A DNA stretch of 64,000 nt from an uncultured Prevotellaceae bacterium (lineage in GTDB: Bacteria > Bacteroidota > Bacteroidia > Bacteroidales > Bacteroidaceae): contig CACZGH010000009.1 of NCBI GenBank assembly GCA_902780635.1, forward strand, positions 23,557 through 87,556, written 5' to 3'. The translations under genes and the position numbers were made by a program. The notes beneath the pieces were generated by a model. The model was given only the letters and a program-made list of their open reading frames with translations. It was not told the DNA's origin and made no database searches. Of this stretch, positions 5,863 through 60,558 are shown piece after piece; positions within the stretch are counted from its first letter, which is position 1, and every line of letters begins with the position of its first letter.

Positions 5863-5959
5863 GTTAAATTAATAGTATAATAATAAAATGATATTCTCTC
5901 TCATCGATACGTGCCGCAAAACGCCCCCACCCATGTGGAGACCTCATGCTCATAGCCCC

Positions 5960-37150: not shown

Positions 37151-37165
37151 GTCATTTAACAGCGT

Positions 37166-38596: not shown

Positions 38597-39788
38597 ATTC
38601 TCCTGCCTTTTCTTTGTTTTTCAGATAGGTTTCTACATCTTTATCTCCGCGTCCGCTCACCGTGAGCACCACGACATCGTCGGGCGCAAACGTCAACTTG
38701 CGGAGCACTGCCACAGCATGAGCACTCTCGATGGCGGGGATGATGCCCTCCATACGGGTGAGTTCATACCCGGCGAGGATAGCCTCGTCGTCGTTGACGG
38801 CGAGCACCTGCGACCGTCCGTCCTCTGCCATGTTAGCGTGCATAGGACCGATACCGGGATAGTCGAGACCGGCAGAGATGGTGAAAGCTTCCTTGATCTG
38901 ACCGTCATCGGTCTGCATCACCAGGGTGCGTGCACCATGCAGAATACCCTCGGTGCCACAGTGGATGGTGGCGGCAGTGTAGTCAGTGTCCACCCCATGG
39001 CCTCCGGCCTCTGCGAGCACGATACGCACACGAGGGTCGTTGATATAGTGATAGATGGTGCCAGCGGCATTGCTTCCGCCACCGATACAGGCAATGAGAT
39101 AGTCGGGATAGTCACGGCCGGTCTTTTCCTCCAGTTGCCATTTCAGCTCTTCGGAGATGACGCTCTGCATCCTCGCCACAATGTCGGGGTAAGGATGGGG
39201 ACCCATCGTCGAACCGACGATGTAGAAGGTGTCGCGAGGATGGCAGCACCAGTCACGGATAGCCTCTGAACAGGCATCGCTGAGGGTCATATTGCCAGTG
39301 GTGACAGGATGCACCTCGGCACCCAGCATCCGCATACGCTCCACGTTGGTGTGCTGTCGCTCCACATCGGTCTTGCCCATGAAAATCTCACACTTCATGT
39401 TCATCAGCGCACAGACGGTGGCAGTGGCCACACCATGTTGTCCGGCACCCGTCTCGGCGATGATGCGCGTCTTGCCCATCTTGCGGGCCATCAGAATCTG
39501 TCCGATGGTATTGTTGATTTTGTGTGCTCCGGTATGGTTGAGGTCTTCACGCTTAAGATACAGCTGGCAACCGTATCGTTCACTCAAGCGGCGGGCGTAG
39601 TAAAGCGGTGAGGGTCGGCCCACATAGTCGCGGAGCAAGGCTCGGTATTCGGCTTTGAATTCTTCACTCTCGATGATGGGGAGGTAGGCTTCCTGCAGGT
39701 CATGTACACACTTGTACAGAATTTCAGGCACGTAGGCACCTCCAAAACGGCCATAGAAGCCGCGTTCGTCTACAAAATAGTCTCTCAT
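38583..39788 (-). CDS. trpB: tryptophan synthase beta chain
   Basis: LNHTGAHKINN (PLP lysine), GGGSNAAG. Confidence 0.95.
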   Translation of the reverse strand: MRDYFVDERGFYGRFGGAYVPEILYKCVHDLQEAYLPIIESEEFKAEYRALLRDYVGRPSPLYYARRLSERYGCQLYLKREDLNHTGAHKINNTIGQILMARKMGKTRIIAETGAGQHGVATATVCALMNMKCEIFMGKTDVERQHTNVERMRMLGAEVHPVTTGNMTLSDACSEAIRDWCCHPRDTFYIVGSTMGPHPYPDIVARMQSVISEELKWQLEEKTGRDYPDYLIACIGGGSNAAGTIYHYINDPRVRIVLAEAGGHGVDTDYTAATIHCGTEGILHGARTLVMQTDDGQIKEAFTISAGLDYPGIGPMHANMAEDGRSQVLAVNDDEAILAGYELTRMEGIIPAIESAHAVAVLRKLTFAPDDVVVLTVSGRGDKDVETYLKNKEKAGEYGQF

Positions 39789-39791
39789 GGC

Positions 39792-40571
39792 TCAGTCCTC
39801 CTCTAAAACTTGCTTCAACTGACGGAGCGCCTCGTCGGGGTCGCGCGTCTCATTGAGCAGGGTGACAAACTTGCTGCCGATGATGGCACCGGCGGCGTTG
39901 TGGTAGGCACTGGTAAGCGTCTGCTTGTTGGAGATGCCAAATCCGATCATCCGCGGGTTGCGCAAAGCCATAGCGTTGATCTTGCGGAAGTAGGCTTGTT
40001 TGGCGTCATCAAAACTCTTCTGCGCACCAGTGATACTGGCCGAACTGACCATATAGATGAAGCCCTCAGTATGCTCGTCGATCAGGCGGATGCGTTCCTC
40101 GGAGGTCTCAGGCGTGATCATCATGATGACTCTCAGATCATAACGGTCGGCAATGGGTTTCACCACCTCCATATAGTCACGGAAAGGCAGGTCGGGTATA
40201 ATCATACCTGAGACACCGCTTTCCACGCAGTCGCGGCAGAAACGCTCGATGCCATGGTGCATCACCACATTGAGATATCCCATAAGCACAAGGGGTATCT
40301 GCACCTGGTCTTTGATAGCGCTGAGTTGTGAGAAGAGGTGACGCAGGGTCATGCCATTGCGAAGCGCCACGGTGCCGGCACTTTGTATCACAGGCCCGTC
40401 GGCAAGGGGGTCGCTGAAGGGGATGCCCACCTCAACCATGCTGATGCCGTGGCGCTGCATGGCGAGGATGACATCGGCGGTACCCTCCAGTGTCGGACAT
40501 CCGGCACAGAAATAGAGCGACAATAGTTTTTGATCTCCTCGTGAGGAGAACAATTGGTTGATTTTATTCAT
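39792..40571 (-). CDS. trpA: tryptophan synthase alpha chain
   Basis: EVGIPFSDPLADGPVIQ. The ORF-track start at 40577 is TTG. The first ATG is 40571. Confidence 0.93.
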   Translation of the reverse strand: MNKINQLFSSRGDQKLLSLYFCAGCPTLEGTADVILAMQRHGISMVEVGIPFSDPLADGPVIQSAGTVALRNGMTLRHLFSQLSAIKDQVQIPLVLMGYLNVVMHHGIERFCRDCVESGVSGMIIPDLPFRDYMEVVKPIADRYDLRVIMMITPETSEERIRLIDEHTEGFIYMVSSASITGAQKSFDDAKQAYFRKINAMALRNPRMIGFGISNKQTLTSAYHNAAGAIIGSKFVTLLNETRDPDEALRQLKQVLEED

Positions 40572-40590
40572 AATCAATAGAGTGTAATTA

Positions 40591-40623
40591 GCTATTCGCT
40601 GTTGGCTGTTCGCTGTTCGCTGT
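40591..40623. repeat. heptanucleotide tandem array (GCTGTTC)x~4.5 inside the trp operon
   Basis: Read directly: gctattc gctgttg gctgttc gctgttc gctgt. Confidence 0.85.
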
Positions 40624-40673
40624 GGGGTTTTCTCAACTCACAGTTTGGAGGTCGCAACCCGCAGTGGTAATCA

Positions 40674-40708
40674 ACTCCCCCTCTAAGTTAGAAGGGGCAA
40701 GGGGGAGT
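40674..40708. repeat. C5/G5 hairpin element (REP-like) inside the trpF-trpA spacer
   Basis: A 9-bp perfect stem pairs ACTCCCCCT with AGGGGGAGT, with a 17-nt loop. On the minus strand it continues GAGGGGGAGTTGATTAC, nearly identical to the sequence at 44575-44591. Confidence 0.75.
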
Positions 40709-40751
40709 GTGTCCTGTTGGCAAGCGAAAACCGACCAGCAAGCACCGAACC

Positions 40752-41456
40752 CTACGCCCTCAGGCGCTCAACGAAGTCACGTATTTTCTCCACATCCTTC
40801 AGGCCAGGCTCAATCTCAAACTTAGAGTTGATGTCCACGCCCACCATCATAGGATGCTGGATCGACTTGATGGCCTCGGCATCTTCCGGTCCGATGCCTC
40901 CGCTCAGTAGGAAGGGTGTCTTTCCTTCATACTGGCTCAGTAGGCTCCAGTCAAACTTCTTGCCACTGCCACCGGCCTCGGCGCACTTGTTGTGGAACAC
41001 AAAATAGTCCACCACATCTTCGTAGGCAGCACACTGCTTGAAGTCTTCTGCGCTCTCGATGAAGATGGTCTTGGCAATCTTAAAACCAGGGCGGATGTCT
41101 GGATCGAGGGTGTGACGGAGATTGTCAATCATCACCGGCGACTCCTCGCCATGCAACTGTACAATGTCGAGGTTGAAATTGTAGACGCGGGTCACAATAT
41201 TCTGGGGCATATCATCCATAAATACACCCACCCGAAGCGGATGATTGTGGCGTGGCATTAACAGATGAGACACACCAAGCTTAGGGGTCTCTCCTTCCAA
41301 CGAGTTGTAGTCGGGAATCAGTCCGCCCCTTGAGTGGATTTGTGTCACAAGCCTTGGACTGTTGGGACAGAACACCAGTCCCAGCCAGTCTACGCCTAAA
41401 GCGCTCACATCGCGTATATTCTGGGCTACACGCATGCCACAAACTTTGATAAGCAT
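40752..41456 (-). CDS. trpF: phosphoribosylanthranilate isomerase
   Basis: MLIKVCGM..., LSGGIGPEDA. At 234 aa it is somewhat longer than typical. Confidence 0.88.
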   Translation of the reverse strand: MLIKVCGMRVAQNIRDVSALGVDWLGLVFCPNSPRLVTQIHSRGGLIPDYNSLEGETPKLGVSHLLMPRHNHPLRVGVFMDDMPQNIVTRVYNFNLDIVQLHGEESPVMIDNLRHTLDPDIRPGFKIAKTIFIESAEDFKQCAAYEDVVDYFVFHNKCAEAGGSGKKFDWSLLSQYEGKTPFLLSGGIGPEDAEAIKSIQHPMMVGVDINSKFEIEPGLKDVEKIRDFVERLRA

Positions 41457-41472
41457 GTTTTGAGTTTTTGAG

Positions 41473-42282
41473 TTATTGAGTTGTTTGAATCTCTGAGATC
41501 AGTACCGACAAAGCCTTTCCGGGGTCCGACGTTTTCATCAACGTCTCTCCGATGAGGAAGCCTCTGTATCCGGCTTGACGGAGACAAACCACTGTGGTGG
41601 GGGCTGAGATGCCGCTTTCACTCACTTTGCAACATTCTGCCGGCAACTGTTTGGCCAACCGGAAGGAGTTGTCGGCGTCGGTGATGAAGGTACCGAGGTT
41701 TCGGTTGTTCACACCGCACATATCGGGTTCAAGTTCCACATATTCGAGTTCTGACTCTTTGTGCGTCTCCAGCAGCACCTCCAAACTCAGGTCATGGGCC
41801 AACCGTAGCAGGCGTCGACACTCGTCTTTGCGCAGACAGGCGGCAATGAGAAGTGCCGCAGAGGCACCGCAGCGACGTGCCTGGAAGAGCTGATACTCGT
41901 CGATGACAAAGTTTTTGTACAGCACGGGCAGTGTGAGTCCAGCCTGGCGTGCCTGTGTCACAAAGATGTCATGCCCTCCGAAATATCGCTCATCGGTGAG
42001 GATACTCACAGCGGCAGCACCGCCTTGTTCATAGGCACAGGTCACAGCGGCAACCTGGGCATCCTCATGAATCCATCCTTTGGAGGGCGACCGCCGTTTA
42101 AACTCGGCGATGATGCCTGTCGGCGACTCCAGCAGTGCCCTGCGCATCGATGGTGGAGGCGCAGGCTCACTGTCTGTCAGCCGCAGCACATCCTGCTCCA
42201 GTTGCCGGAGTGGAGTCTGTGCCTTCGCCTCGGCCACCTCTATGCGTTTCCACGCCACGATCTCTTCCAGTACATCTTTCAT
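41473..42282 (-). CDS. trpC: indole-3-glycerol phosphate synthase
   Basis: IIAEFKRRSPSKG, NNRNL, SESGI. The start is set at ATG 42282, 4 nt after the trpD stop. Confidence 0.92.
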   Translation of the reverse strand: MKDVLEEIVAWKRIEVAEAKAQTPLRQLEQDVLRLTDSEPAPPPSMRRALLESPTGIIAEFKRRSPSKGWIHEDAQVAAVTCAYEQGGAAAVSILTDERYFGGHDIFVTQARQAGLTLPVLYKNFVIDEYQLFQARRCGASAALLIAACLRKDECRRLLRLAHDLSLEVLLETHKESELEYVELEPDMCGVNNRNLGTFITDADNSFRLAKQLPAECCKVSESGISAPTTVVCLRQAGYRGFLIGETLMKTSDPGKALSVLISEIQTTQ

Positions 42283-42286
42283 CTTG

Positions 42287-43288
42287 TCATGAGTTGAGTT
42301 CGACAAATTTTTGCAGGGTCTTCCATGCTTTGCCACTCTCTATCGACTCTTTGGCGATATCGAGACACTCTTCGATGCTCTTGTCTTGTTCAAGCACCTG
42401 AATGCCGAAGGCGGCATTGGCCAGCACCACATTCTTTTGGTCGCGCTCTGCCTGGTTGAGCAGCACATTGTCAAAGATACGCTTCGCCTCAGCGGGGGTT
42501 GTTCCACCATAGAGTTTCGAGGGGTCGGCGGGGTCGAAACCAAGATGCGACGGATGGAAGATACGCTCATAGCGGTTGGTAGTGACCTTAAAGTCGCCGG
42601 TGAGCGATATTTCGTCATAGCCGTCGATGCTGTTGACGATGCCATAATCTACACCGATGCGCTGATACACATTACTATATAGTCGCATCTGGTCAAGATT
42701 GGCCACTCCAAGCAGCTGACACTTGGGCTGCGAGGGGTTGACAATGGGACCAAGCAAATTGAAATAGGTGGGGAAGGCTAATGCCTTGCGGATGGGCCCC
42801 ACAAATTTCATAGCTTTGGCAAAGAGCTGGGCGTGCAGATAGACGATACCGCACTCTTCCATGGAGCGGTTGAGACGGTCGATGTCGGAGGTGAAGTGTA
42901 CACCGTGTGTCTCAATGATATTGGACGCTCCGCTTACCGACGTGGCGGCGTAATTGCCGTGTTTGGCCACCTTATACCCCGCCCCGGCGATAACGAAGCA
43001 GGAGCAGGTGGAGATATTGAAAGTATTTTTCTGGTCTCCGCCTGTACCCACCACGTCGATGTAGCGGTCGCAGTCAAGCACAGCTTTCACACCGGTCTCC
43101 AAGATTCCGTCACGGAATCCAAGCAACTCATCCACCGTGATGCCACGCATCTGCAAACCGGTGATCAAAGCTGTGATCTGCTCGTTGGGATATTCTCCCT
43201 TGGTGATGTTCACCAAAATGTCGCGGGTCTCTTCCCGTGTCAGCTCTTCATGATTGAGCATCCTGTGAAGGATTTCATTCATTGCCAT
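42287..43288 (-). CDS. trpD: anthranilate phosphoribosyltransferase
   Basis: DVVGTGGDQKNTFNIST, KHGNYAATS. Confidence 0.93.
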   Translation of the reverse strand: MAMNEILHRMLNHEELTREETRDILVNITKGEYPNEQITALITGLQMRGITVDELLGFRDGILETGVKAVLDCDRYIDVVGTGGDQKNTFNISTCSCFVIAGAGYKVAKHGNYAATSVSGASNIIETHGVHFTSDIDRLNRSMEECGIVYLHAQLFAKAMKFVGPIRKALAFPTYFNLLGPIVNPSQPKCQLLGVANLDQMRLYSNVYQRIGVDYGIVNSIDGYDEISLTGDFKVTTNRYERIFHPSHLGFDPADPSKLYGGTTPAEAKRIFDNVLLNQAERDQKNVVLANAAFGIQVLEQDKSIEECLDIAKESIESGKAWKTLQKFVELNS

Positions 43289-43746: not shown

Positions 43747-43872
43747 ATGAAAATATTTACCCACGAAGAATTTGAGCCCTCTCCTAAGACTTTGAAATTC
43801 ATCCTTGAGTTTGCCCACACCTATCGTACGATGGAATACAATGGGCATCGCATGGCTTATTGTCTGAACTAA
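43747..43872 (+). CDS. possible 41-aa ORF upstream of rpe
   Basis: MKIFTHEEFEPSPKTLKFILEFAHTYRTMEYNGHRMAYCLN has a non-repetitive composition and ends 12 nt before the rpe ATG. There is no other support. Confidence 0.25.
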   Translation: MKIFTHEEFEPSPKTLKFILEFAHTYRTMEYNGHRMAYCLN

Positions 43873-43883
43873 ACTACGACTAT

Positions 43884-44534
43884 ATGGCTACAATGGTTTC
43901 CCCGTCGCTGTTGGCGGCCGACTTCACCAATCTAAGCAAAGACATCGACATGATCAACCGCAGTGAGGCCGACTGGCTCCACATGGATATCATGGATGGT
44001 GTATTCGTTCCCAATATCTCTTTTGGCTTCCCTGTGTTGGAGGCGGTGGCTGGCATCTGCCAGAAACCACTCGACGTACATTTCATGACGGTACATCCGG
44101 AAGTCTACATTGCCCAGACGGCACGCCTCGGCGCCATGATGATGAACATCCACTACGAGGCTTGCACCCACCTGCACCGCACTATAGACACCATCCACAA
44201 GGCAGGTATGAAAGCGGGCGTGACACTCAACCCCTCGACACCCGTATCTATGCTGGAAGACATCATTGGTGATGTCGACATGGTGCTGCTCATGAGTGTC
44301 AACCCGGGATTTGGAGGTCAGAAGTTTATTGAGAACACGATACAAAAGACCCAACGTCTGCGCAAACTCATCCAAGAAAGCGGAAGTCACGCACTGATAG
44401 AAGTAGACGGAGGTGTACAAACAGAAACGGCCCCACGATTGGTGAAGGCCGGGGTAGATATCCTCGTGAGCGGAAGCTATGTGTTCAAGGCTAAAGACCC
44501 CATCGCCACTATTCACTCACTGAAAGAGTTGTAA
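43884..44534 (+). CDS. rpe: ribulose-phosphate 3-epimerase
   Basis: VSPSLLAADF, HMDIMDGVFVPN, MSVNPGFGGQKF. The ORF-track start at 43860 is TTG. Confidence 0.93.
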   Translation: MATMVSPSLLAADFTNLSKDIDMINRSEADWLHMDIMDGVFVPNISFGFPVLEAVAGICQKPLDVHFMTVHPEVYIAQTARLGAMMMNIHYEACTHLHRTIDTIHKAGMKAGVTLNPSTPVSMLEDIIGDVDMVLLMSVNPGFGGQKFIENTIQKTQRLRKLIQESGSHALIEVDGGVQTETAPRLVKAGVDILVSGSYVFKAKDPIATIHSLKEL

Positions 44535-44646: not shown

Positions 44647-45243
44647 TCAGTCCAGTTGGAGCACCACGTCATGCTCACGGGCCATTCTCCGCAAGTTGAG
44701 AATGGCATAGCGCATACGACCTAATGAGGTGTTGATGCTCACACCAGTGGCCTCGGCGATTTCCTTAAACGACATCTCCTGATAGAAACGCATGAACACC
44801 ACCTCACGCTGTGAGGGGGGCAGCATGTTCATCATCTTGCGCACGTCCCTGAGCACCTGATCGTTGACAAATTGATTTTCAACATTGGTGTCAAGGAGAT
44901 CGTTGCCGCTGAGGTTGGATAGGTCGTTATCCTCTGTGGGCTCCACTATCTTCTCTGCCCTCTGCTCACGATACCAGTCCATGATGACGTTGTGGGCAAT
45001 GCGCATGAGCCAGGCGCTAAACTTACCCGAATTGGTATACTTGCGCTGCTGCAGCTTGGTGATCACCTTGACAAACGTCTCCTGAAAGATGTCATCTGCG
45101 AAGTCACGGTCGCGGACGACAAACAAAATATAAGTAAAGAGTTTGGACTTGGTTCTTGCCAGCAGCAAATCAAACGCTCTATTATTCCCATCAATGTATG
45201 ACAATGCCAACTGCTCGTCGGTCATTCCATTCAGATTATCCAT
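44647..45243 (-). CDS. ECF-type (group 4) sigma-70 family RNA polymerase sigma factor
   Basis: Region 2 (DIFQETFVKV...WLMRIAHN) and region 4 HTH (SFKEIAEATGVSINTSLGRMRYA). No adjacent anti-sigma gene. Confidence 0.88.
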   Translation of the reverse strand: MDNLNGMTDEQLALSYIDGNNRAFDLLLARTKSKLFTYILFVVRDRDFADDIFQETFVKVITKLQQRKYTNSGKFSAWLMRIAHNVIMDWYREQRAEKIVEPTEDNDLSNLSGNDLLDTNVENQFVNDQVLRDVRKMMNMLPPSQREVVFMRFYQEMSFKEIAEATGVSINTSLGRMRYAILNLRRMAREHDVVLQLD

Positions 45244-45345
45244 TCCTTAAAATTATTGATCTTTAAGTAATGCTGTTTCGATAGGCTATGAGGTTTAAAT
45301 GAATAATATGTAAATATGTGTTGACAAAATCTCTGTTTACGGCTG

Positions 45346-45353
45346 CAAATATA
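45346..45353 (-). promoter_or_regulatory. -7 promoter motif TATATTTG upstream of the sigma-factor gene
   Basis: Matches TAnnTTTG on the minus strand, about 100 nt before the ATG. Confidence 0.4.
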
Positions 45354-45456
45354 AATACTTTTGTCCATCTGTGCAAATTTTTAACAAAAAAATGAAGTTT
45401 TATATATCCATGCTCAAAAAAAGAGGATAATATTTTGTTTTTTTGACCACTTTCAC

Positions 45457-45464
45457 TATCTTTG
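45457..45464 (+). promoter_or_regulatory. -7 promoter motif TATCTTTG immediately upstream of the cobalamin riboswitch
   Basis: Matches TAnnTTTG. The aptamer starts within about 5 nt. Confidence 0.55.
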
Positions 45465-45465
45465 C

Positions 45466-45632
45466 AACGGAAAGGTTCGCTATACGCGATGAACAAGGGA
45501 ATGGGGTGTGAGTCCCCAACTGTCCCGCAGCTGTGAGTTCCATTATAGCTATAGGCAAAAGGCCACTGTCGCCATCAATGACGGGAAGGCGCCTATAGAG
45601 GAACATAGTCAGAATACCTGCCTTTTCAAGTA
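45466..45632 (+). ncRNA. cobalamin (B12) riboswitch aptamer
   Basis: The core motifs appear in the correct order: GGTTCGC..AAGGGAATGGGGTGTGAGTCCCCAACTGTCCCGCAGCTGTGAG, then GCCACTG (45562-45568), then GGGAAGGCG, then the B12 box AGTCAGAATACCTGCC (45607-45622). Boundaries are approximate. Confidence 0.88.
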
Positions 45633-45830
45633 AGCTCAGGCTTGCCAGACTCTCTCGATGCAAGGGACGACGGCGCAACTGATACAAACGGCACACCCAC
45701 TCATGGACAAGGCAGCAGCCTGCTTTGTCGGCATTGGGAGAAATAGGCTTTGTTGGCAGGGTCAATAGGCTTTGTTCTCATATAGCACCTATCAGTGAAC
45801 ATCAACCGAAGTGTATTATATAAGTTTCAA

Positions 45831-45865
45831 AAGAAGCGAGACCGTGAGGCCTCGCTCTTTTGTTT
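45831..45865 (+). terminator. intrinsic terminator about 200 nt downstream of the riboswitch aptamer
   Basis: Stem GCGAG-A-CC pairs with GG-C-CTCGC around a GTGA (GNRA) tetraloop, followed by TCTTTTGTTT. Confidence 0.6.
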
Positions 45866-46101
45866 GGTAACTAGCAGAAGGCTCTGTCCTCCATATTACA
45901 TCTTCTTTGCTGCAGCAAACACCACGAAGAGCATGAAATATGCAGATTAATGACTGAAAATCAGGGCGTTTTAAGGGCAATCAATTAAAATAAATTAAAA
46001 ATGTTACAAAACTAAAAGAAAATGTAACATTAGATTTTAAACTTTTTCGAAACCACAAACTTACTGCAACACATCAAAAAGACATCATCATGATAAATGG
46101 A

Positions 46102-46109
46102 TAACTTTG
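46102..46109 (+). promoter_or_regulatory. -7 promoter motif TAACTTTG upstream of the fasciclin/SusCD locus
   Basis: Matches TAnnTTTG, 95 nt before ATG 46204. Confidence 0.5.
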
Positions 46110-46203
46110 CATCGTAAAATTTACTAAAGCAACGACTTGATAACTAAATGTTGAATACATCGCTGTCAAAAATACAAGCAACAATTAATAATTAAAAACT
46201 CTT

Positions 46204-48741
46204 ATGAAAATCCGAAAACATTTCTGGAATCGATGCCGATATCTTCTGTTGGCAGCCGGAGTCATGTTTGCCGGTGGTACCATGCTGACCTCATGCTCGG
46301 AGTATGACCTCGACGAGAGAACACCCGAAGGATGGGGATCCAGCATCTACAGTTGGTTGCAGGAAAACGGCAACTACACCAACACCGTGCGAATGATCGA
46401 CGACCTCGGCTACAAGGAGGTACTGGCAAAAACCGGCTCAAAAACGCTCTTCGTCGCTGACGATGACGCATACAAACGGTTTTTCCAAAACAACAGGTGG
46501 GGAGTGAGAAGTTACGAACAACTTTCTACGTCACAGAAAAAACTGCTCCTTTTCGGCAGCATGATGGACAACTCCATGCAGCTCAACAGCTTGCCAAGCG
46601 TAGAGGGAACACCGCCACGTGAGGGTGAGTGTATGCGACGCTTCGCATCCAACACACCCTACGACTCAGTGAGTGTGCTCAATGCCAGCCAAATGCCTGA
46701 CAACCCCTACTGGAGCCGTTACAAGGAGTCGGGGCAGCCCATGGTATGCATGACCGACAACTCCGTAGTGCCTCTTGTGCAGTTTATAGAGAAACAGTTG
46801 GTCAACAAACGCATCACTAACAGTGACTACGACTTCCTGTATAATAATACAACACACCGTGAGTCGGGCGACGCCAGTGTCAATGGTGTACAAGTGGAAG
46901 AGCCCAACATCAAATGCTCCAATGGTTTCATCCACAAAATGAGCGAGGTGATCACACCACTGCCCAACATGGCTGAGTTGGTCGCACAGAAGCCCTTGGT
47001 CAGCCGTTTCAACCGCCTGCTGGAGCGTTTCTGCGCACCTTACTGGGTGGGGGAGGCCACCACAACCCAATACAATTATCTCTATAATAAAAATGTGGAC
47101 TCTGTATACCAGAAGCGATTCTTCTCTGAGAAATCACAAGGAGGACTGCCTCTCAATGCCACACCTGACAACGGGCCTGTCAACGGTCTGTTGAAATACG
47201 ACCCAGAATGGAACGCATACTATGCCGGACTTGACGATCAGGGCGGCAATATCGCACTACAGCGTGACATGGCCGTGATGATGGTGCCCAGCGACAAGGC
47301 TTTGGATGAGTACTGGAACTCAGGGGCTGGAAAGGTGCTCAGAGACTACTACGGCACGTGGGAGAATGTGCCCGACGAGGTGGTGGTGAAGTTGCTCAAC
47401 AACAACATGCTCAGCTCCTTTGTCTCATCTGTGCCTTCCAAGTTCCAGGGTATCCTCAACGATGCCAACGACCCGATGGGCGTGGAGCAGGAAGCCATCG
47501 ACTCTGTATGGCTGGGGTGCAACGGTGCCATCTATCTCACCAACCGCGTCTACTCCCCCACGGCTTATGTGAGCGTATCATTCCCTGCACTGGTCAACGA
47601 GACCATGAAAATCATCTACTGGGGTATCGAGCAGTTGCAATACAATGTGTATCTCAACTCACTCAACTCTTACTACAGTTTCTTTATACCCACCAACAAG
47701 TCATTGCTCGAGTACATCGACCCATGCTCCTATGGCAAGAGCCAGACACAGCTCTTCCGATTCCACTACGACCCCACCAAGGTCAACGTCAACGACCGCG
47801 TGTGGGCCAGCATCTGGAACTATGACACTGAGACAGGAGAGGTGGGAGACTCTATCGGCCGCGCAGGCTACGACATGGTGTGCAACCGACTGAAAGATAT
47901 CCTCGACACACATATCGTTATAGGTAATGTGGAAGACGGGCAGACCTTCTACCGCACAAAAGGTGGAACAGAGATCCGCGTCACCAACCCACAGGCAGGA
48001 GCCAACGGCATGACCGTGGAGGGAAGCTATCAGATGAATGAGGGACAGCCCATCCGCGTCAGTTATATCTACGACCAGACTCAGGGTGGAAACGGCAAGA
48101 GCTACATCCTCGACGACCAGCCCATCCTCGGCACAAGAAATACCGTGCGCGATGTGCTCGCCAGCAGGCCTGAGTTCTCCAAATTCCTTGAACTGATGGA
48201 CGGCAGCGGACTGTTTGAGCAAATACACCTCCGTCGCAACGCATGTGGTGGTACCAACATCTCGGTATTCAACACCTATCATTATACCATCTACGTGCCT
48301 ACCAACTCCAGTATCGAAGAGTTGCAGCGTCAGGGAAAACTCTCATCATGGGAAGCTGTCGACGCATGGGAGGAAGCCGGCAATCTGACCGCCAAGACAC
48401 AAGACTCACTGCAGATTGTCAACTTCCTGAAATACCACATCCAGGACAATGCCCTCTTCATCGGTGCAGGGGAAGACGCTGGCGACTTTGAGACAGCTGT
48501 CGTCGACCCAAAAACTGAGCGTTTCTACCGTGTCTCCGCTACCCTCAGCAACAACGGCATCACGCTCATTGACTATGCGAAGAACACACGCCATGTGGTC
48601 ACCACCGACCCACGTCTCTACAATCTCGTGGCTCGTGAGTTCCAGTACAACACCACCGACGCCTCTAATGCTAGCAACATTGAGACCAGTTCCTCGGCCG
48701 TTATCCACCTTATCGACAAACCGTTGTTGATTAAAAATTGA
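46204..48741 (+). CDS. large surface lipoprotein with about four fasciclin (FAS1)-like repeats
   Basis: Lipobox MLTSCSEY. FAS1 H1/H2-type motifs recur: KTLFVADDDAYKRF / SNGFIHKMSEVITPL, VMMVPSDKALDEYW / CNGAIYLTNRVYSP, SFFIPTNKSLLEYI, and YTIYVPTNSSIEEL / SSAVIHLIDKPLL. Confidence 0.75.
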   Translation: MKIRKHFWNRCRYLLLAAGVMFAGGTMLTSCSEYDLDERTPEGWGSSIYSWLQENGNYTNTVRMIDDLGYKEVLAKTGSKTLFVADDDAYKRFFQNNRWGVRSYEQLSTSQKKLLLFGSMMDNSMQLNSLPSVEGTPPREGECMRRFASNTPYDSVSVLNASQMPDNPYWSRYKESGQPMVCMTDNSVVPLVQFIEKQLVNKRITNSDYDFLYNNTTHRESGDASVNGVQVEEPNIKCSNGFIHKMSEVITPLPNMAELVAQKPLVSRFNRLLERFCAPYWVGEATTTQYNYLYNKNVDSVYQKRFFSEKSQGGLPLNATPDNGPVNGLLKYDPEWNAYYAGLDDQGGNIALQRDMAVMMVPSDKALDEYWNSGAGKVLRDYYGTWENVPDEVVVKLLNNNMLSSFVSSVPSKFQGILNDANDPMGVEQEAIDSVWLGCNGAIYLTNRVYSPTAYVSVSFPALVNETMKIIYWGIEQLQYNVYLNSLNSYYSFFIPTNKSLLEYIDPCSYGKSQTQLFRFHYDPTKVNVNDRVWASIWNYDTETGEVGDSIGRAGYDMVCNRLKDILDTHIVIGNVEDGQTFYRTKGGTEIRVTNPQAGANGMTVEGSYQMNEGQPIRVSYIYDQTQGGNGKSYILDDQPILGTRNTVRDVLASRPEFSKFLELMDGSGLFEQIHLRRNACGGTNISVFNTYHYTIYVPTNSSIEELQRQGKLSSWEAVDAWEEAGNLTAKTQDSLQIVNFLKYHIQDNALFIGAGEDAGDFETAVVDPKTERFYRVSATLSNNGITLIDYAKNTRHVVTTDPRLYNLVAREFQYNTTDASNASNIETSSSAVIHLIDKPLLIKN

Positions 48742-48746
48742 AGAAG

Positions 48747-51700
48747 ATGGAAACAAAAAGAATCATTAGCATCATAGGATTGATAATTTTCTTCTTTCAA
48801 TTATCAATTGTAAAATCGTCAGCACAAAATGCAGGCGACATCATCAGCGGTACAGTGACCGACGCCGATGGCCCTATCATCGGTGCCAACGTAGTGGAAA
48901 TCGACGCCGCCAACCGTATCATCGTATCAGCAGTGACCGACATCAACGGTAACTTCTCCTTCAAGGTGAAAAATCCAAAAGACAAACTGCGATTCACCTA
49001 CGTGGGATACAAGACCGTCACCATGCCGATTAACAGGCACAAATACAATGTCACCATGTCCGACGGCAGCGAACTCGAAGGTGTCGTCGTCACCTCGAAA
49101 CGGCGTGCACAAGGCTCTGGCCTCGCCATCCCTGTAGATGAAATCTCCGCCGCACGACAGAGCATCGACATGTCCGAGTTCACCGGACTGGCCATCACCA
49201 CCGTCGACGAAGCCCTCCAGGGACGTATCGCTGGTCTTGACATCGTGGCCAACTCTGGTAACCTCGGCTCCGGCACCTCCATGCGTCTGCGTGGTGTGTC
49301 GAGTATCAACGGCAGCAGTGAGCCTCTGATCGTGGTCGATGGCAACGTCTGGGAAACCAACGTCAACGACTTCGACTTCTCTTCTGCCAATGAGGAGAAA
49401 TTCGCAGAACTGCTCAACGTCAACCCCGAGGACATCGAGAGTATCGCCGTGCTGAAAGACGCCGCAGCCACAGCCATCTGGGGTTCGCAAGGCTCCAACG
49501 GTGTGATTGAGATCAAGACCAAACGTGGTACACGCGGTCCCACAAGGGCCAGCTACAGCCTGCGTATGACGGGTACTTACCAACCCACCGGCTACAACAT
49601 GCTCAACGGCGACGAGTACACCATGCTGCTCAAGGAAGAGTATTTCAACCCCTCCATGAGCGACGCGTCCAGCGACATTCCTGAGCTCAACTACAACCCC
49701 AGCTTCCCTGAGTACGAAATGTACAACAACAACACCGACTGGTTGAAAGCTGTCAAGCAGACCGGTCTGCGACAGAACCATTACCTCGCGCTCAGCGGTG
49801 GTGGTGAAAAGGCCAACTTCCGCATCGGTGCCGGTTATGACCATGAGACAGGCTCTATCATCAAGCAGGTGCTCGACCGCTTCACCTCACGTGTCAACCT
49901 CGACTACTTCGTGAGCGACCGTATCAAGATCGAGACCAATATCGCACTCACCTACACAAAAAATCAGAAAAACAATGGCGACCTGCTCTCCATCGGCTAT
50001 AGGCGTATGCCCAATCTTTCTATCTATGAGCAGGACAAAAATGGCAATGACCTTGACGAGTACTACAGCATGCTACCCACCGTGTCAAGCCAACTGCGCG
50101 ACCAGCTCAATGACAAAAACCCCGTGGCACTGGCTCATCTAGCCAAGAATCACGAGACCAGCTACAACATCGAGCCGGAATTCAAACTGCGCTACAACCT
50201 CTTAGGCCTGTCTGAGAGACAGACACGCCTCAGCTACGAGGGTAAAGTGGTGTTCAACATCTTCAACCGCTACGAGGACACTTTCATGCCGCTCTCGCTC
50301 AGCACCACAGGATGGAACGACACCAACGGGAAACAGAGCAACCGCTCCACGGCCAACTCTTCCAAGAGTTTCGGCGTCACCACTACCCACACCCTTACTT
50401 TCACACCTGCTTTCAAAAATGCAGACCACTCTCTCATGATGATGCTTCGTGGACAGCTCACCAGTGGTAACTCCACCTCACAGGGCACCACCGTATGGGG
50501 TCTACCCTCTGGCACCATCATCAGCACCGCATCGCCAGGCATCATCGACGGCATCAGCACAGGAAGCGGACAGTGGCGTAGCATCTACTTCACCTACTCC
50601 GCACACTATGCTTACAAAGGCAAATACATGGCCGACTTCTCCGTACGTCGTGACGGTAGCACCAAGTTCGGTGCCGACCAGCGCTGGGGTAACTTCCCTG
50701 CCTTCTCTCTCCGCTGGAACATCCACAAAGAGAAATTCTTCAGCGAGGCACTGCCCTGGATCTCCACCCTCTCCATCCGTCCAGGATGGGGTATCGTGGG
50801 TCGACAGCCTGGCTCTGAGTACCTCTACTTCAGCAAATATGCCAATGGCAGCGGCTACATGAACGAGCGAAGCATCTACCCGCAGAACATTCAGCTCAAA
50901 AATCTGAAATGGGAGCAGAAAGAGACCTACAATGTCGGTATGGACTTCGGTTTCTTCAACGAACGACTCACTGGTAATGTAGAGCTTTACCGCCAGTACA
51001 CCTCCGACCTGCTCATGGGCGGACGAGGCATCCCCACCTCTTCTGGTTACTCTCAGCTGGCATGGCAAAATGTGGGCGACATGAAAAACATTGGATGGGA
51101 GTTCAACATCAATGCCTACCACATCCTCCGGGCTGGAAAATTCAGCGTCGACTTCAACGTGACCTTCGCCAACAACAAGAACCAGATCACCGCCATGGAG
51201 GAGACTTGTCTGGCCAGCCTCAACAACGAGTTCGACCGCAACAACGGCTCCTACCTCACTCGCGTGGAACTCAACCGCGCACTCGGAAGCATCTACGGAT
51301 TCCGCTACAAAGGTGTGTACCAGTATTCTGACTACACACCAGAGGAAATCAAAGGTGTGAGCGGCCCCAACGCACCAGTGGTGCGCGACGCCAACGACGT
51401 GGTCATCATCGACGAGAACAACATGACCAAGCCTATGACCTTCTGCTACGGCTCTGTCAACTATGAGTTCCGCGGCGGTGATGCCATTTATGAGGATGTC
51501 AACCACGACGGACAGATCAACGAGCTCGACATTGTATATTTAGGCTCATCACTGCCCAAATTCACCGGCGGTTTCGGCTTCAAGCTCAATTTCGGACGTC
51601 TGACATGGAACAACCAGTTCAACTTCCGCTATGGCAACAAGATTGTCAACAAAGCACGAATGAACGCCGAGAACATGTACTCCAACAACAACCAGAGCCG

Positions 51701-52043
51701 CGCTGTCAACTGGCGCTGGCGTGTGGAGGGTGACGTGACAGAGATACCACGAGCTCTCTACCAGTATGGATACAACTGGCTCGGAAGCGACCGCTTCGTA
51801 GAAGACGGTTCCTTCATCCGACTCAACTACTCTCAGCTCAGCTACTCTCTCGATCCAAGAATCATCAAACGATTAGGACTCACCCAACTGAGCTTCTACA
51901 TTTCGGCCAACAACCTGTTCTGCCTCACAAAATACTCGGGTGCAGACCCAGAGGTCGGATACGGCAGCTTCGGACTGGTGACTGACAACGCACAGACACC
52001 GCGCTCGAAGTCATTCACCGGAGGTATCACCATACAATTCTAA
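48747..52043 (+). CDS. SusC/RagA-family TonB-dependent outer-membrane transporter (copy 1)
   Basis: Has a signal peptide, a CarboxypepD_reg-like start (ISGTVTDADGPIIGANVV), a plug (IVVDGNVWE, GVIEIKTKRG), a ~1100-aa barrel and a terminal F. The ORF-track start at 48738 is TTG. Confidence 0.92.
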   Translation: METKRIISIIGLIIFFFQLSIVKSSAQNAGDIISGTVTDADGPIIGANVVEIDAANRIIVSAVTDINGNFSFKVKNPKDKLRFTYVGYKTVTMPINRHKYNVTMSDGSELEGVVVTSKRRAQGSGLAIPVDEISAARQSIDMSEFTGLAITTVDEALQGRIAGLDIVANSGNLGSGTSMRLRGVSSINGSSEPLIVVDGNVWETNVNDFDFSSANEEKFAELLNVNPEDIESIAVLKDAAATAIWGSQGSNGVIEIKTKRGTRGPTRASYSLRMTGTYQPTGYNMLNGDEYTMLLKEEYFNPSMSDASSDIPELNYNPSFPEYEMYNNNTDWLKAVKQTGLRQNHYLALSGGGEKANFRIGAGYDHETGSIIKQVLDRFTSRVNLDYFVSDRIKIETNIALTYTKNQKNNGDLLSIGYRRMPNLSIYEQDKNGNDLDEYYSMLPTVSSQLRDQLNDKNPVALAHLAKNHETSYNIEPEFKLRYNLLGLSERQTRLSYEGKVVFNIFNRYEDTFMPLSLSTTGWNDTNGKQSNRSTANSSKSFGVTTTHTLTFTPAFKNADHSLMMMLRGQLTSGNSTSQGTTVWGLPSGTIISTASPGIIDGISTGSGQWRSIYFTYSAHYAYKGKYMADFSVRRDGSTKFGADQRWGNFPAFSLRWNIHKEKFFSEALPWISTLSIRPGWGIVGRQPGSEYLYFSKYANGSGYMNERSIYPQNIQLKNLKWEQKETYNVGMDFGFFNERLTGNVELYRQYTSDLLMGGRGIPTSSGYSQLAWQNVGDMKNIGWEFNINAYHILRAGKFSVDFNVTFANNKNQITAMEETCLASLNNEFDRNNGSYLTRVELNRALGSIYGFRYKGVYQYSDYTPEEIKGVSGPNAPVVRDANDVVIIDENNMTKPMTFCYGSVNYEFRGGDAIYEDVNHDGQINELDIVYLGSSLPKFTGGFGFKLNFGRLTWNNQFNFRYGNKIVNKARMNAENMYSNNNQSRAVNWRWRVEGDVTEIPRALYQYGYNWLGSDRFVEDGSFIRLNYSQLSYSLDPRIIKRLGLTQLSFYISANNLFCLTKYSGADPEVGYGSFGLVTDNAQTPRSKSFTGGITIQF

Positions 52044-52063
52044 CAGATAACGGCTTTTGGATT

Positions 52064-53755
52064 ATGAAAAAATTATTATATCAGTTCAAATATATCATCT
52101 GCGCCGTCGCTATGACAGCCCCACTGACAGGATGCTCCGACTTCCTCGACATCCTGCCAATGAATGAGGTGGTGCTTGAGAACTACTGGACAGAAAAAGG
52201 CGACGTCACGAGCGTGGTCAACAGCTGCTATGAAAGCCTCGAAAACGGCGACTGCATCACAAGAATGGGAGTATGGGGAGAGCTGCGTTCCGACAACCTC
52301 CGCTTAGGCTCCAACGTGCCCAACGAAATCAATGAAATCCTGAAGGAAAACCTGCTGCCATCCAACCCGATGTGCAGTTGGGCACGATTCTATGAGGCCA
52401 TCAACCGTTGCAACACCGTATGCTACTACGCACCACAGGTGCAAGCCATCGACCCCAACTATACGGAGGAGGAGATGCGCGCCAATGTGGCTGAGGCCTC
52501 TGCACTACGCGCACTGTGCTATTTCTATCTCATACGCACTTTCCGTGACGTGCCCTACACCACACAACCCAGCATCGACGACAACCAGGTGTTTGTCAAG
52601 GCTGCGACACCATTCAACGCCGTGCTCGACTCGCTCGTCACTGACCTCGAAAAAGTCAAGGACGATGCCGTGAGCAGGTATTATACCGACGACAGTCCCA
52701 ACGCATACGTCAACTCTAGCCGCATCACACGCTGGGCCATCTACGCACTGCTCGCCGACCTCTATCTGTGGAAAGGCGACTGGGACAACAGCATCAAATA
52801 CTGCGACTTAGTCATCAACTTCAAGCGCAAGCAATATGACGAGATGCTCGAAAGACAGGGCAATGTCAACAATATCGACCTCTTCGGTGGCATCCCCATG
52901 ATTCTCGAGAAACCCATCGGAAGCACCAACTGTGGCAACGCTTATAACGAGATTTTCGGAGAGGGCAACTCTTTTGAGAGCATCTTCGAACTTTACTTCA
53001 GAGCCAACCAAAGCCAGCAGAACACCTGGGTGAGCAACTACTTCGGCAACAACACCAATACCGTAGGACGCCTCACAGCACCCGACTTCCTTTGCAAGGA
53101 TGCGGCACAAGGCAACAACACCATCTTCAAGCGTACCGACGGACGCGTCTACGAGTCCTCAGAGTTGAGCAACTCACGTTATGCGATCACCAAATACGTG
53201 CGTCGCAGCGTCAGTTATTCCAATCAGAACATCACCAAAGACGCTGACCTCAACCTGATGAGTTCAAGACGTAGCAGCGCCGATGCCAACTGGATCTTCT
53301 ACCGACTGAGCGACATGCTGCTCATCAAGGCTGAGGCACAGATACAGAAAGGAGAGGAAAACTATGAGAGCGCTTTCCAACTCATCAACCGCGTCAACAA
53401 GCGAGCCAACGATGTGACAACCAGTGCACGCTCCGATACCCTCAAGATGGCCGACTACATCACATCCAAAATCTCCATGGAAGAACTGCTGATGGAAGAA
53501 CGCCAGAGAGAGTTCATGTTTGAGGGCAAAAGATGGTTCGACCTGGTGCGAATGGCACGACGCGATGGCAACAACAACCGTCTCATCTCTCTTGCATCAC
53601 GCAAGTATATAGAAAATGTGAACGCTATCAAGATTAAGTTGGCTGACCCCAACATCATCTACTTCCCCTACGCTAAGAGTGAGCTGAAAGTCAACCCGCT
53701 GCTCGTGCAGAATCCAGCATTCGGTAACGAGGAAGATACCGAACTCACCAAATAA
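52064..53755 (+). CDS. SusD/RagB-family nutrient-binding lipoprotein (copy 1)
   Basis: Lipobox LTGCSDFLD, TPR-like core, and ERQREFMFEGKRWFDLVRM near the C-terminus. Confidence 0.9.
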   Translation: MKKLLYQFKYIICAVAMTAPLTGCSDFLDILPMNEVVLENYWTEKGDVTSVVNSCYESLENGDCITRMGVWGELRSDNLRLGSNVPNEINEILKENLLPSNPMCSWARFYEAINRCNTVCYYAPQVQAIDPNYTEEEMRANVAEASALRALCYFYLIRTFRDVPYTTQPSIDDNQVFVKAATPFNAVLDSLVTDLEKVKDDAVSRYYTDDSPNAYVNSSRITRWAIYALLADLYLWKGDWDNSIKYCDLVINFKRKQYDEMLERQGNVNNIDLFGGIPMILEKPIGSTNCGNAYNEIFGEGNSFESIFELYFRANQSQQNTWVSNYFGNNTNTVGRLTAPDFLCKDAAQGNNTIFKRTDGRVYESSELSNSRYAITKYVRRSVSYSNQNITKDADLNLMSSRRSSADANWIFYRLSDMLLIKAEAQIQKGEENYESAFQLINRVNKRANDVTTSARSDTLKMADYITSKISMEELLMEERQREFMFEGKRWFDLVRMARRDGNNNRLISLASRKYIENVNAIKIKLADPNIIYFPYAKSELKVNPLLVQNPAFGNEEDTELTK

Positions 53756-53785
53756 ACGTCACACCATCAACAGCAAAACACAACT

Positions 53786-55714: not shown

Positions 55715-55792
55715 TTGAGGAATGCAGAGATTTAAATCTCAACAACTCAAAACTCAAAAACGTAATAACTCATCACATAATAAACGTCTATC

Positions 55793-60546: not shown

Positions 60547-60558
60547 ACGACAAGCATC

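Follow-up and report, generated by a model that had tools for sequence, protein, structure and literature searches.

EutX of Enterococcus faecalis and Rli55 of Listeria monocytogenes are separate RNAs in which B12 triggers an intrinsic terminator placed right after a cobalamin aptamer; the long form sequesters EutV by means of ANTAR-binding dual hexaloop hairpins, and the RNAs lie next to eut genes. To our knowledge, stand-alone regulatory RNAs driven by a riboswitch are limited to a few cases in Firmicutes, all of which involve either a regulated terminator together with a protein sponge, or antisense overlap. Bacteroidota are not known to possess Hfq or ProQ, and sRNA biology is young in this phylum. 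AspocR of Listeria is an antisense RNA to pocR regulated by a B12 riboswitch (mentioned in PMC11575231). The SAM riboswitches SreA and SreB of Listeria, like the SAM-I riboswitch/sRNA of Desulfovibrio vulgaris (bioRxiv 10.1101/803072), belong to genuine mRNAs as terminated leaders and have a second role in trans. Canonical cobalamin riboswitches of Bacteroidota are located upstream of btuB-type loci, as exemplified by cbl-1-btuB of P. gingivalis, with a leader that is also long at 430 nt (PMC3422912), and by riboswitches 1 and 3 of X. ruminicola KHP1, a strain with two further riboswitches that do not adjoin B12 genes (PMC11575231).

Here we describe a locus in a 64-kb window (the whole stretch of DNA that was analysed) that probably constitutes a self-contained gene for a B12-responsive non-coding RNA of ~350-430 nt, acting via an invariant 23-mer in a clade of rumen Prevotella. 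The whole unit was found in 29 distinct versions from rumen Prevotella, 61-97% identical, within a narrow sampled range made up of sigma factor orthologues at ≥83% identity (best 120 matches listed) and metagenome matches. Like EutX and Rli55, it has a 5' cobalamin aptamer on a separate RNA without an ORF (its transcription is predicted), and a candidate effector domain downstream through which B12 status could act in trans. It shares with AspocR a cobalamin riboswitch governing a non-coding transcript rather than an mRNA, with the SAM riboswitch RNAs the prospect of doubling as a trans base-pairing regulator, and with the canonical riboswitches of Bacteroidota the RF00174 aptamer family and the predicted promoter type. 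No description of a stand-alone B12 riboswitch RNA from Bacteroidota was found in the literature searched.

The aptamer occupies positions 45456-45639 of the forward strand, on which all parts of the unit lie. It matches RF00174 over the full covariance model (positions 1-189) with 95.3 bits, where the gathering score is 31.5 (E 1.9e-22), and it is the sole Rfam match across the 64 kb. The initial annotation had read a cobalamin riboswitch at ~45466-45632 with a -7 motif ahead of it, and had taken the aptamer as the head of a ~400-nt non-coding transcript; the covariance-model search, the conservation of the promoter box and the comparative data (29 units, varied neighbours) all support this reading. 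Helix P1 pairs 45469-45475 with 45621-45627, and the B12 box, AGTCAGAATACCTGCC, was read from the sequence at 45607-45622. The core motifs AAGGGAA, GCCACUG and GGGAAGG are present in the window together with the B12 box and are invariant in 13 diverse versions, among which compensatory double changes affect 9 of 38 RNAalifold consensus pairs, chiefly in the peripheral P6-extension helices; in some lineages, mismatches occur within P1. Complete orthologous aptamers score 88-104 bits against the same model. Judged by score, core motifs and covarying helices, the aptamer is a member of RF00174. Housekeeping promoters of Bacteroidota have the consensus TAnnTTTG, not TATAAT, and a putative -7 box of this type, TATCTTTG, can be read at 45457-45464. 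The extended form TAnnTTTGCA keeps its position in 29/29 distinct units, 5 nt ahead of P1, and transcription would be expected to start at ~45469-45471.

The aptamer is followed by two hairpins, which we refer to as the platform. HP1 (45627-45645), derived from the RNAalifold consensus, lies directly 3' of P1 and combines an outer stem CAAG/CUUG with a variable inner stem and loop and an invariant GCUUGCC on its 3' side. Its pairing is kept in 91% of alignment cells, with solely one-sided changes among four scored pairs; the inner stems, read by eye, are lineage-specific yet still pair. HP2 (45651-45667) has the stem UCUCU/AGGGA and a 7-nt loop, CGAUGYA, at 45656-45662, which is invariant across the 29 units; pairing is kept in 95.7% of cells, and one pair changes from C-G to U-A in five of them. 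The conserved loops of the unit, 7 nt here and 4 nt (GUGA) in the 3' hairpin, thus differ from the hexaloops of EutX and Rli55. Another difference from these RNAs is the lack of a hairpin plus U-run after the aptamer, with none at 45640-45828 in the window and none conserved in the alignment. A Rho-utilisation site after the platform was rejected, as the 60 nt past HP2 show no rut-like bias of C over G (mean C 0.22, mean G 0.25). A kissing interaction joining L5 of the aptamer to a loop of the platform was rejected too, as none of the loops shows consistent complementarity; L5 is matched best by the AGGGR strand of HP2, where all positions involved are invariant, so that covariation is uninformative.

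Past the platform, a variable middle region (45668-45803; 86-174 nt in relatives) aligns poorly and has many indels. It holds the 13-nt direct repeat with 22-nt phase that had been pointed out initially, AATAGGCTTTGTT, which is indeed exact in the window at 45742-45754 and 45764-45776. Only one relative, the near-identical L109, retains the repeats; in all others they are missing or degraded, with deletion in L087-L089. They are not conserved and therefore unlikely to be functional sites, and were rejected as such. Assignment of the tail to a known RNA family was likewise rejected: a scan of 45620-46210 against Rfam with permissive settings returned no credible match, the top one, MicX, reaching 21 bits where the gathering score is 75.

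At 45804-45826 stands the 23-mer AACCGAAGTGTATTATATAAGTT, identical in 27 of the 29 units (the other two show G>A and a 3-nt insertion), with one copy in the window and 0 in shuffles. As RNA, AACCGAAGUGUAUUAUAUAAGUU is predicted to be single-stranded, with a mean predicted unpaired probability of 0.65 versus 0.38 for the whole transcript, and the minimum-energy fold of 45800-45866 leaves it unpaired. A conserved seed, accessible by prediction, beside an intrinsic terminator is the arrangement looked for in an sRNA, and we regard the 23-mer as a candidate effector, either a base-pairing seed or a protein-binding site; given its palindromic core, TTATATAA, it could also work at the DNA level. 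Such a predicted single-stranded motif of 23 nt is unlike the effector of EutX and Rli55. A search of the 64-kb window and of related loci (1.26 Mb) gave no convincing complementary target, the best predicted duplex in the window (-18.9 kcal/mol) involving 878-901 (+), where no plus-strand ORF of ≥150 aa is listed. Sibling RNAs sharing the 23-mer were rejected: viral contigs yielded 0 matches, and in 13/13 metagenome matches it is accompanied by the riboswitch, being preceded by the promoter box and by the AAGGGAA, B12-box and CTCGATGYAAGG motifs. We also discarded the idea that a short 3' sRNA starts from a promoter inside the unit, as TAGGCTTTG in the window departs from the TAnnTTTG spacing by one base and is not conserved.

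The unit ends in a hairpin at 45829-45865 that consists of an A-tract (45829-45835), an 8-bp stem formed by GCGAGACC (45836-45843) and GGCCUCGC (45848-45855), a GUGA loop (45844-45847) and the U-tract UCUUUUGUUU (45856-45865). Its folding energy is -18.1 kcal/mol (z -3.44), pairing is kept in 93.8% of alignment cells compared with ≤53% when the partners are slid, double changes occur in two pairs (11 cells), and a U-run (≥6 T in 9 nt) follows the stem in 26/29 units. Sequence similarity to relatives stops here, at 45864-45867. By its stem, U-run and covariation, the 3' hairpin is an intrinsic terminator, which agrees with the GNRA-capped terminator first placed at 45831-45865. A simple terminator scan of the window did not call the hairpin, and we think that it was probably blind to it owing to an A.C mismatch in the stem. 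The three units without a U-run after the hairpin (L105, L115 and L113) have a co-oriented LPG_synthase_TM gene downstream, and read-through is possible in these.

The usual divergent neighbour is a gene for an ECF-type sigma-70 factor (44647-45243, minus strand; Pfam Sigma70_r2 and r4), which lies outside the transcript. RF00174 matches were obtained in 25 of 26 sigma-orthologue loci (83-99% identity, among the matches listed), two of them cut at the contig end (L092, L107), and the remaining locus (L108) is truncated ahead of the site; a regular expression for the core motifs recovered 23/26 sigma loci and 0/80 fasciclin loci. On the right-hand side, eight different genes adjoin the unit, four of which are convergent and end at its terminator (FKBP, a 674-aa protein, HGSNAT/DUF5009 and a ~260-aa lipoprotein). 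A co-oriented LPG_synthase_TM gene with M20 is found downstream in the most divergent lineages (L095-99, L105/106, L111, L113, L115, L122/123) and is for that reason probably the ancestral neighbour. Constraint is uneven along the locus, with an invariant 23-mer and a covarying terminator set against a middle that can hardly be aligned and two diverging flanks. The unit is thus conserved independently of the genes that flank it. Its surroundings, an ECF sigma gene and variable genes with no eut, pdu or ANTAR gene among the annotated neighbours, set it apart from EutX and Rli55, as does its phylum, Bacteroidota. AspocR runs antisense into a neighbouring gene, whereas the Prevotella transcript is predicted to terminate ahead of any convergent gene, and its neighbour varies by lineage and is co-oriented in the window. 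In contrast to the SAM riboswitch RNAs, the unit comes without any mRNA and with a dedicated conserved 3' domain, and in contrast to the canonical riboswitches of Bacteroidota, which share a transcript with genes for B12 transport or synthesis and repress these, it has no regulated gene. The analogy to Rli55, EutX and AspocR drawn in the initial annotation therefore holds for the logic and fails for membership, as a regulated terminator, ANTAR-type hairpins and antisense overlap are all missing.

A classical cis-acting riboswitch has a co-transcribed gene downstream, with the start or terminator of that gene in the expression platform; here there is no conserved ORF, convergent genes occur downstream and the terminator is conserved. 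The unit could still be a cis leader with a long spacer, B12 controlling read-through into LPG_synthase_TM/M20 peptidase ancestrally or into the fasciclin/SusCD locus in the window, an idea encouraged by the co-oriented neighbour of the most divergent lineages, by the missing U-run in three of those units and by the co-orientation of the next gene in the window. We consider this improbable. In the four convergent contexts the gene abutting the terminator leaves nothing downstream to control, and the unit is fully conserved there; the hairpin and U-run are canonical in 26/29 units; and the candidate target genes have their own TAnnTTTG box past the terminator, present in 6/6 LPG_synthase_TM genes and 58/62 fasciclin orthologues, the one in the window, TAACTTTG at 46102-46109 (+), having been correctly noted from the outset. 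Riboswitches were found in 0/9 LPG_synthase_TM loci outside the clade (66-73% identity) and in 0/80 orthologous fasciclin/SusCD loci (blastn and core-motif regular expression, with an Rfam scan of 14 loci); the unit is therefore not the leader of the latter locus, and its control by read-through, one of two alternatives initially offered, was rejected. We know of no B12 connection for either neighbour. The other of those alternatives, a relic left functionless by loss of a btuB-type or other regulated gene, would suit the resemblance of the platform to the translational type, with an AUG in the HP2 loop opening an ORF of 1-54 codons as expected of descent from an mRNA leader. It is refuted by near-full Rfam scores and compensatory substitutions in the aptamer despite near-unalignable variable regions, and by a promoter box, HP2 loop, 23-mer and terminator that are invariant or covarying in 29 versions and ≥8 genomic contexts; nor does any orthologous locus examined hold a gene in the 45640-45830 interval. 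We give it very little credence. The neighbour-independent conservation of the unit leads us to reject both the relic and the cis-leader readings. The same AUG could instead be thought to start a small protein or regulatory leader peptide, as the ATG at 45658 and the bases after it are invariant (CTCGATG[C/T]AAGG) and open a 36-codon ORF in the window, the longest ATG ORF of the interval (45658-45768, 36 aa plus stop; its start had initially been given as 45657, one base off). The second codon, however, is TAA in 13/29 units, the remaining units have ORFs of 8, 13, 18, 36, 39 or 54 codons that are unrelated in sequence past ~12 residues, and the ATG lies within a hairpin loop. There is, as first stated, no plus-strand ORF of ≥60 aa between 45640 and 46204, and no conserved ORF on either strand, the longest six-frame ORFs shifting in position and length between lineages. 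With neither ORF length nor sequence conserved, a small protein was rejected and appears extremely improbable; the tail is non-coding.

Cis action on the divergent ECF sigma gene is an unlikely explanation as well. The transcription of the unit could interfere with the sigma promoter, or an antisense promoter at the AT-rich 23-mer could feed a long sigma 5' UTR, with B12 tuning sigma in either case. The unit adjoins sigma in every sigma-orthologue locus with enough sequence, the [rpe-sigma-ncRNA] block is retained while both outer flanks vary, and TATATAAT can be read in the reverse complement of the 23-mer. Against this, Bacteroidota housekeeping promoters follow TAnnTTTG, not TATAAT. The two transcripts are divergent and non-overlapping, with -7 boxes ~105 nt apart, and in two lineages 0.8-1.5 kb with whole ORFs has been inserted between sigma and the ncRNA, and both have been kept. 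The L111/L122 lineage breaks the link, its unit being intact with a co-oriented HHH_5/DUF4332 gene upstream in place of sigma, and L110 has no sigma gene within 580 nt. Duplexes predicted between the tail and the sigma 5' UTR are weaker than those of shuffled controls, and such pairing was rejected.

The reading that we favour is thus a self-contained B12-responsive non-coding RNA. A housekeeping-type promoter would start transcription ~5 nt upstream of P1, and the predicted transcript would present, in order, the aptamer, two platform hairpins, a fast-evolving spacer, the single-stranded 23-mer and a strong intrinsic terminator. Binding of cobalamin would act through the HP1/HP2 platform to alter how the RNA folds or what becomes of it, and the 23-mer next to the terminator would serve as output, base-pairing with mRNAs in trans or binding a protein, thereby conveying B12 status to unlinked genes. 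A counter-point to gating of the output by B12 is that a ligand-controlled terminator and a rut-like stretch with C in excess of G are both absent between the aptamer and the 23-mer.

The family may extend to a cultured strain: the aptamer of KHP1 riboswitch 2 (1,604,149-1,604,333, minus strand) is 72-80% identical to the aptamers of the Prevotella family, and this riboswitch may be a cultured representative of it. In X. ruminicola, a related bacterium of the rumen, 17.5% of genes respond to B12, including methylmalonyl-CoA mutase, and the authors found no link to riboswitches (PMC11575231). Tentatively, and on comparative sequence grounds, we put forward a riboswitch-headed trans-acting RNA in Bacteroidota with a 23-nt effector unrelated to the ANTAR-sponge mechanism of Firmicutes, which could be the missing B12 regulator of X. 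ruminicola. As a conserved Bacteroidota family whose output domain and coupling logic are unlike those of known cases, the unit provides a system in which to ask how a metabolite sensor can drive a trans-acting RNA when no terminator switch is involved. Being compact and sharply bounded, and having in the 23-mer an obvious mutational target, the family makes the hypothesis directly testable. The B12-dependent switch from succinate to propionate in abundant rumen Prevotella matters for ruminant nutrition, and the B12 regulon is largely unexplained (PMC11575231). If the proposed reading is true, a dedicated B12-sensing non-coding RNA in rumen Prevotella would broadcast corrinoid status via a 23-nt effector.

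RF00174 (Cobalamin) is the sole Rfam family detected by an Rfam scan of the 64-kb window, with a full-model match at 45456-45639 (+) that scores 95.3 bits, far over the gathering score of 31.5, and bears out the riboswitch call of the initial annotation. The -7 box TATCTTTG (45457-45464, +) precedes P1 by five bases. In P1, GGAAAGG (45469-45475) pairs with CCUUUUC (45621-45627); the B12 box occupies 45607-45622 (+). As had been read from the sequence, the window holds no + strand ORF of at least 60 aa between the riboswitch and 46204. The longest ATG ORF there is indeed short, at 36 aa, and spans 45658-45768 rather than starting at 45657. The suspected intrinsic terminator is a hairpin at 45836-45855, GCGAGACC-GUGA-GGCCUCGC, flanked by an A-tract and UCUUUUGUUU, with a predicted fold of -18.1 kcal/mol (z -3.44); it was not picked up by a pattern scanner, probably owing to an A.C mismatch in the stem. 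Exact copies of a 13-nt direct repeat stand at 45742-45754 and 45764-45776, and thus every element listed in that annotation (aptamer, -7 box, scarcity of ORFs, hairpin and repeat) is present in the window.

Divergent from this unit lies a gene for an ECF-type sigma-70 factor (44647-45243, -), hereafter sigma. The sigma orthologues listed (83-99% identity) were traced to contigs, giving 26 loci, numbered with the prefix L; 25 of them carry an RF00174 match on the strand opposite to sigma, scoring 88-104 bits where complete (contig ends cut the match in L092 and L107, and the L108 contig ends before the site). By blastn, these loci resemble the window from the start codon of sigma as far as 45864-45867, where the similarity stops, at the exact end of the terminator; the unit is sharply bounded and goes with its left-hand flank. 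Beyond it, the co-oriented neighbours are the fasciclin locus (window, L001/002, L109), an AAA_11/12 helicase (L090-094) or LPG_synthase_TM with an M20 peptidase (L095-099, L105/106, L111, L113, L115, L122/123), and the convergent ones are FKBP (L083/084), a 674-687-aa protein (L085/086), HGSNAT/DUF5009 (L087-089), a ~260-aa lipoprotein (L100-104, L117-119) or a 220-aa protein (L120/121). In the convergent contexts the neighbour's stop codon abuts the terminator, and the riboswitch therefore has no gene to control in cis.

On the far side of sigma in the window lie rpe (43860-44534, +) and trpD (42287-43288, -). The latter appears to belong to a tryptophan-biosynthesis cluster at 36578-43288 (-), of which trpD is annotated in the window itself and the other members (IGPS, PRAI, TrpA, TrpB and anthranilate synthase) are deduced from related contigs, where they stand beside trpD. 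In the Rfam scan of the window, neither a Bacteroid-trp leader nor any family besides RF00174 reached threshold. An ORF of 41-45 aa without a Pfam match, directly upstream of rpe (43747-43872, +), appears in the gene calls of L001, a contig from the same species, and of most contigs linked to sigma; it could encode a conserved small protein or leader peptide. The sigma gene has its own -7 box, TATATTTG (45345-45352, -), and a nearly invariant ~24-nt element in its 5' UTR (45263-45286, ~20-45 nt before the start codon), TTAAGTAATGCTGTTTCGATAGGC or, in the mRNA sense (- strand), GCCUAUCGAAACAGCAUUACUUAA, which is kept across orthologues of 83-100% identity while the UTR around it diverges.

A metagenome scan with the 3' motif of the unit returned 13 stretches, in all of which the motif is preceded by the promoter box, AAGGGAA, the B12 box and CTCGATGYAAGG; Rfam confirmed the aptamer in all four that were scanned. 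Together with the sigma-linked loci these make 29 distinct units, 61-97% identical to the window, with predicted transcripts of 347-432 nt and the promoter TAnnTTTGCA in every case. Among 13 diverse versions, 9 of 38 aptamer consensus pairs show compensatory double changes, and the analyses show the cobalamin aptamer to be under structural selection. Directly after P1 comes hairpin HP1 (45627-45645), whose outer stem CAAG/CUUG, followed by GCUUGCC, is kept while its inner stem and loop vary. The second hairpin, HP2 (45651-45667), reaches 95.7% pairing; one of its pairs changes from C-G to U-A, and its 7-nt loop, CGAUGYA (45656-45662), is invariant. The stretch that follows (86-174 nt) is rich in indels and holds the 13-nt repeats of the window, which proved not to be conserved: L083-086 have degraded copies and L087-089 have lost them. 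The 3' motif itself, a 23-mer, AACCGAAGUGUAUUAUAUAAGUU (45804-45826), is invariant in 27 of the 29 units, the exceptions (L105 and L115) having a G>A change plus a 3-nt insertion; it is predicted to be single-stranded, with a mean unpaired probability of 0.65 versus 0.38 for the whole transcript. After a spacer of 6-14 nt comes the terminator, paired in 93.8% of cells versus 53% or less with slid partners, with two doubly changed pairs (11 cells), an invariant GCG..CC-GUGA-GG..CGC and a U-run in 26 of 29 units. The variant 3' module with the G>A change and the 3-nt insertion, AACCGAAATGTATTATGATATAAGTT, belongs to one lineage (L105/L106, 3101-3126; L115, 4526-4551), in which the hairpin is longer, has no U-run after it and lies upstream of a co-oriented LPG_synthase_TM gene into which transcription may read through.

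The unit is non-coding. Thirteen of 29 units have a TAA directly after the ATG of the HP2 loop; in the others this ATG opens an ORF of 8-54 codons that diverges after ~12 residues. Across all six frames, neither the place nor the length of the longest ORFs is constant between lineages. The minimal AUG-UAA ORF occurs in L083, L084, L090, L093, L100-L103, L110, L116-L118 and L120; in the others CAA follows the AUG, the C or U being the sole base that varies.

The initial annotation had also considered long-range control of the downstream fasciclin/SusCD locus, where a fasciclin-domain lipoprotein (46204-48741, +), SusC (48738-52043, +) and SusD (52064-53755, +) are followed by two further fasciclin proteins and another SusC/SusD pair, in the tandem order fasciclin, SusC, SusD, fasciclin, fasciclin, SusC, SusD (46204-62259). 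Orthologues of the first, 845-aa fasciclin protein (52-87% identity) are encoded, in varied contexts, by at least 80 genomes of rumen Prevotella, Bacteroidaceae and Bacteroidales. In 80 such loci, from rumen Prevotella and related genomes, blastn matched neither the aptamer, nor the tail, nor most of the spacer; a B12-core regex had no match, and neither sigma, rpe nor trpD lay upstream. Rfam detected no riboswitch in the 14 closest of these loci. The suggestion that the downstream gene has its own -7 motif held, with a TAnnTTTG at -102 in the window and one within 250 nt of the start codon in 58 of 62 orthologues. Because the riboswitch is missing from all 80 loci and 58 of 62 orthologues have their own promoter box, the riboswitch sits at a synteny breakpoint, foreign to the right-hand locus, and we reject both its role as a fasciclin/SusCD leader and long-range control. 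A decaying relic, the other alternative raised in the initial annotation, is likewise rejected, as the aptamer keeps 88-104 bits and compensatory changes and the terminator covaries.

Nor is the unit bound to either flanking gene. In the most divergent lineages it lies between sigma and LPG_synthase_TM plus M20, which is probably the ancestral arrangement. Since each LPG_synthase_TM gene has its own TAnnTTTG after the unit's hairpin (25-40 nt before the start codon), nine loci with orthologues (66-73% identity) in species outside the clade have no riboswitch, and sigma is missing from the L111/L122 lineage (a co-oriented HHH_5/DUF4332 gene in its place, the unit intact at 104 bits) and from within 580 nt in L110, the unit is independent of both. 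In two lineages, insertions of 0.8-1.5 kb that contain whole ORFs separate sigma from the unit. The insertion in L090/L091 (about 5023-6000) is ~0.8 kb long and carries a 191-aa ORF without a Pfam match, and that in L105/L106 (3498-4808) is a 409-436-aa gene with a faint GH99 match. Both sides of the unit form a rearrangement hot spot, with at least eight right-hand and five left-hand contexts; the breakpoints never fall inside it.

We propose that the RNA would be transcribed as one ~400-nt molecule, that B12 binding would alter its fold or fate via the HP1/HP2 platform, and that the 23-mer would be the output, acting on unlinked targets. The search for a coupling of sensor to output found none: the window scan and unit alignment revealed no hairpin with a U-run between aptamer and 23-mer, and the unit has no C>G rut-like region and no platform loop consistently complementary to aptamer loop L5. 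The HP2 3' strand (AGGGR) could alternatively pair with L5 (UCCCG or UCUCG) or the P1 3' strand (CCUUU), the one suggestive feature, which would make HP2 a ligand-sensitive element; as all bases involved are invariant, this pairing lies beyond covariation analysis. Neither the 64-kb window nor 1.26 Mb of related loci yielded targets of the 23-mer, and the sigma 5' UTR offered none for the unit's tail.

The analogy with Rli55, EutX and AspocR holds for the logic and fails for membership. A riboswitch would drive a regulatory RNA instead of an mRNA, as in EutX/Rli55 and, at a greater remove, in AspocR and SreA/B; unlike EutX/Rli55, the unit lacks a regulated terminator after the aptamer, an ANTAR-type hexaloop pair and eut/pdu linkage, and unlike AspocR it has no antisense overlap. 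A permissive Rfam scan assigned the tail to no family, and full-text literature searches, in agreement with the initial annotation, turned up no report of a stand-alone B12 riboswitch RNA from Bacteroidota. The closest literature lead is X. ruminicola KHP1, which has four cobalamin riboswitches, only two of them beside or upstream of B12-related genes, and in which B12 changes 17.5% of transcripts by a route unexplained there (PMC11575231). Riboswitch 2 (1,604,149-1,604,333, -; PMC11575231, Table S5) is 72-80% identical to the unit-family aptamers and shares their P1/P2 signature AAAGGTTCGC...CGCGAT; because the other KHP1 riboswitches are also 63-76% identical, it is a lead to orthology rather than proof. 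It is a paralogue of riboswitch 4 (2,792,551-2,792,735, +; PMC11575231, Table S5); the two are identical in their core, and their B12 box is altered, AGTCTGAAGACCAGCC. By position, these would be the two not beside B12-related genes; their scores in the search of that paper were low, at 30.5 and 17.1, and J4031_11665 (Lrp/AsnC family), a gene whose locus tag is nearby, falls 3.75 log2 units with B12 (PMC11575231).

The main reading of the initial annotation, an aptamer heading a ~400-nt non-coding transcript, is supported by the comparative evidence. We consider it very probable that the unit is an autonomous, conserved ncRNA unit, and give roughly even chances to the full model, in which a B12-gated RNA acts in trans through the 23-mer. 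On comparative sequence analysis, the finding is a conserved family of self-contained, riboswitch-headed ncRNA genes in rumen Prevotella, marked by a distinctive 3' motif that is invariant.
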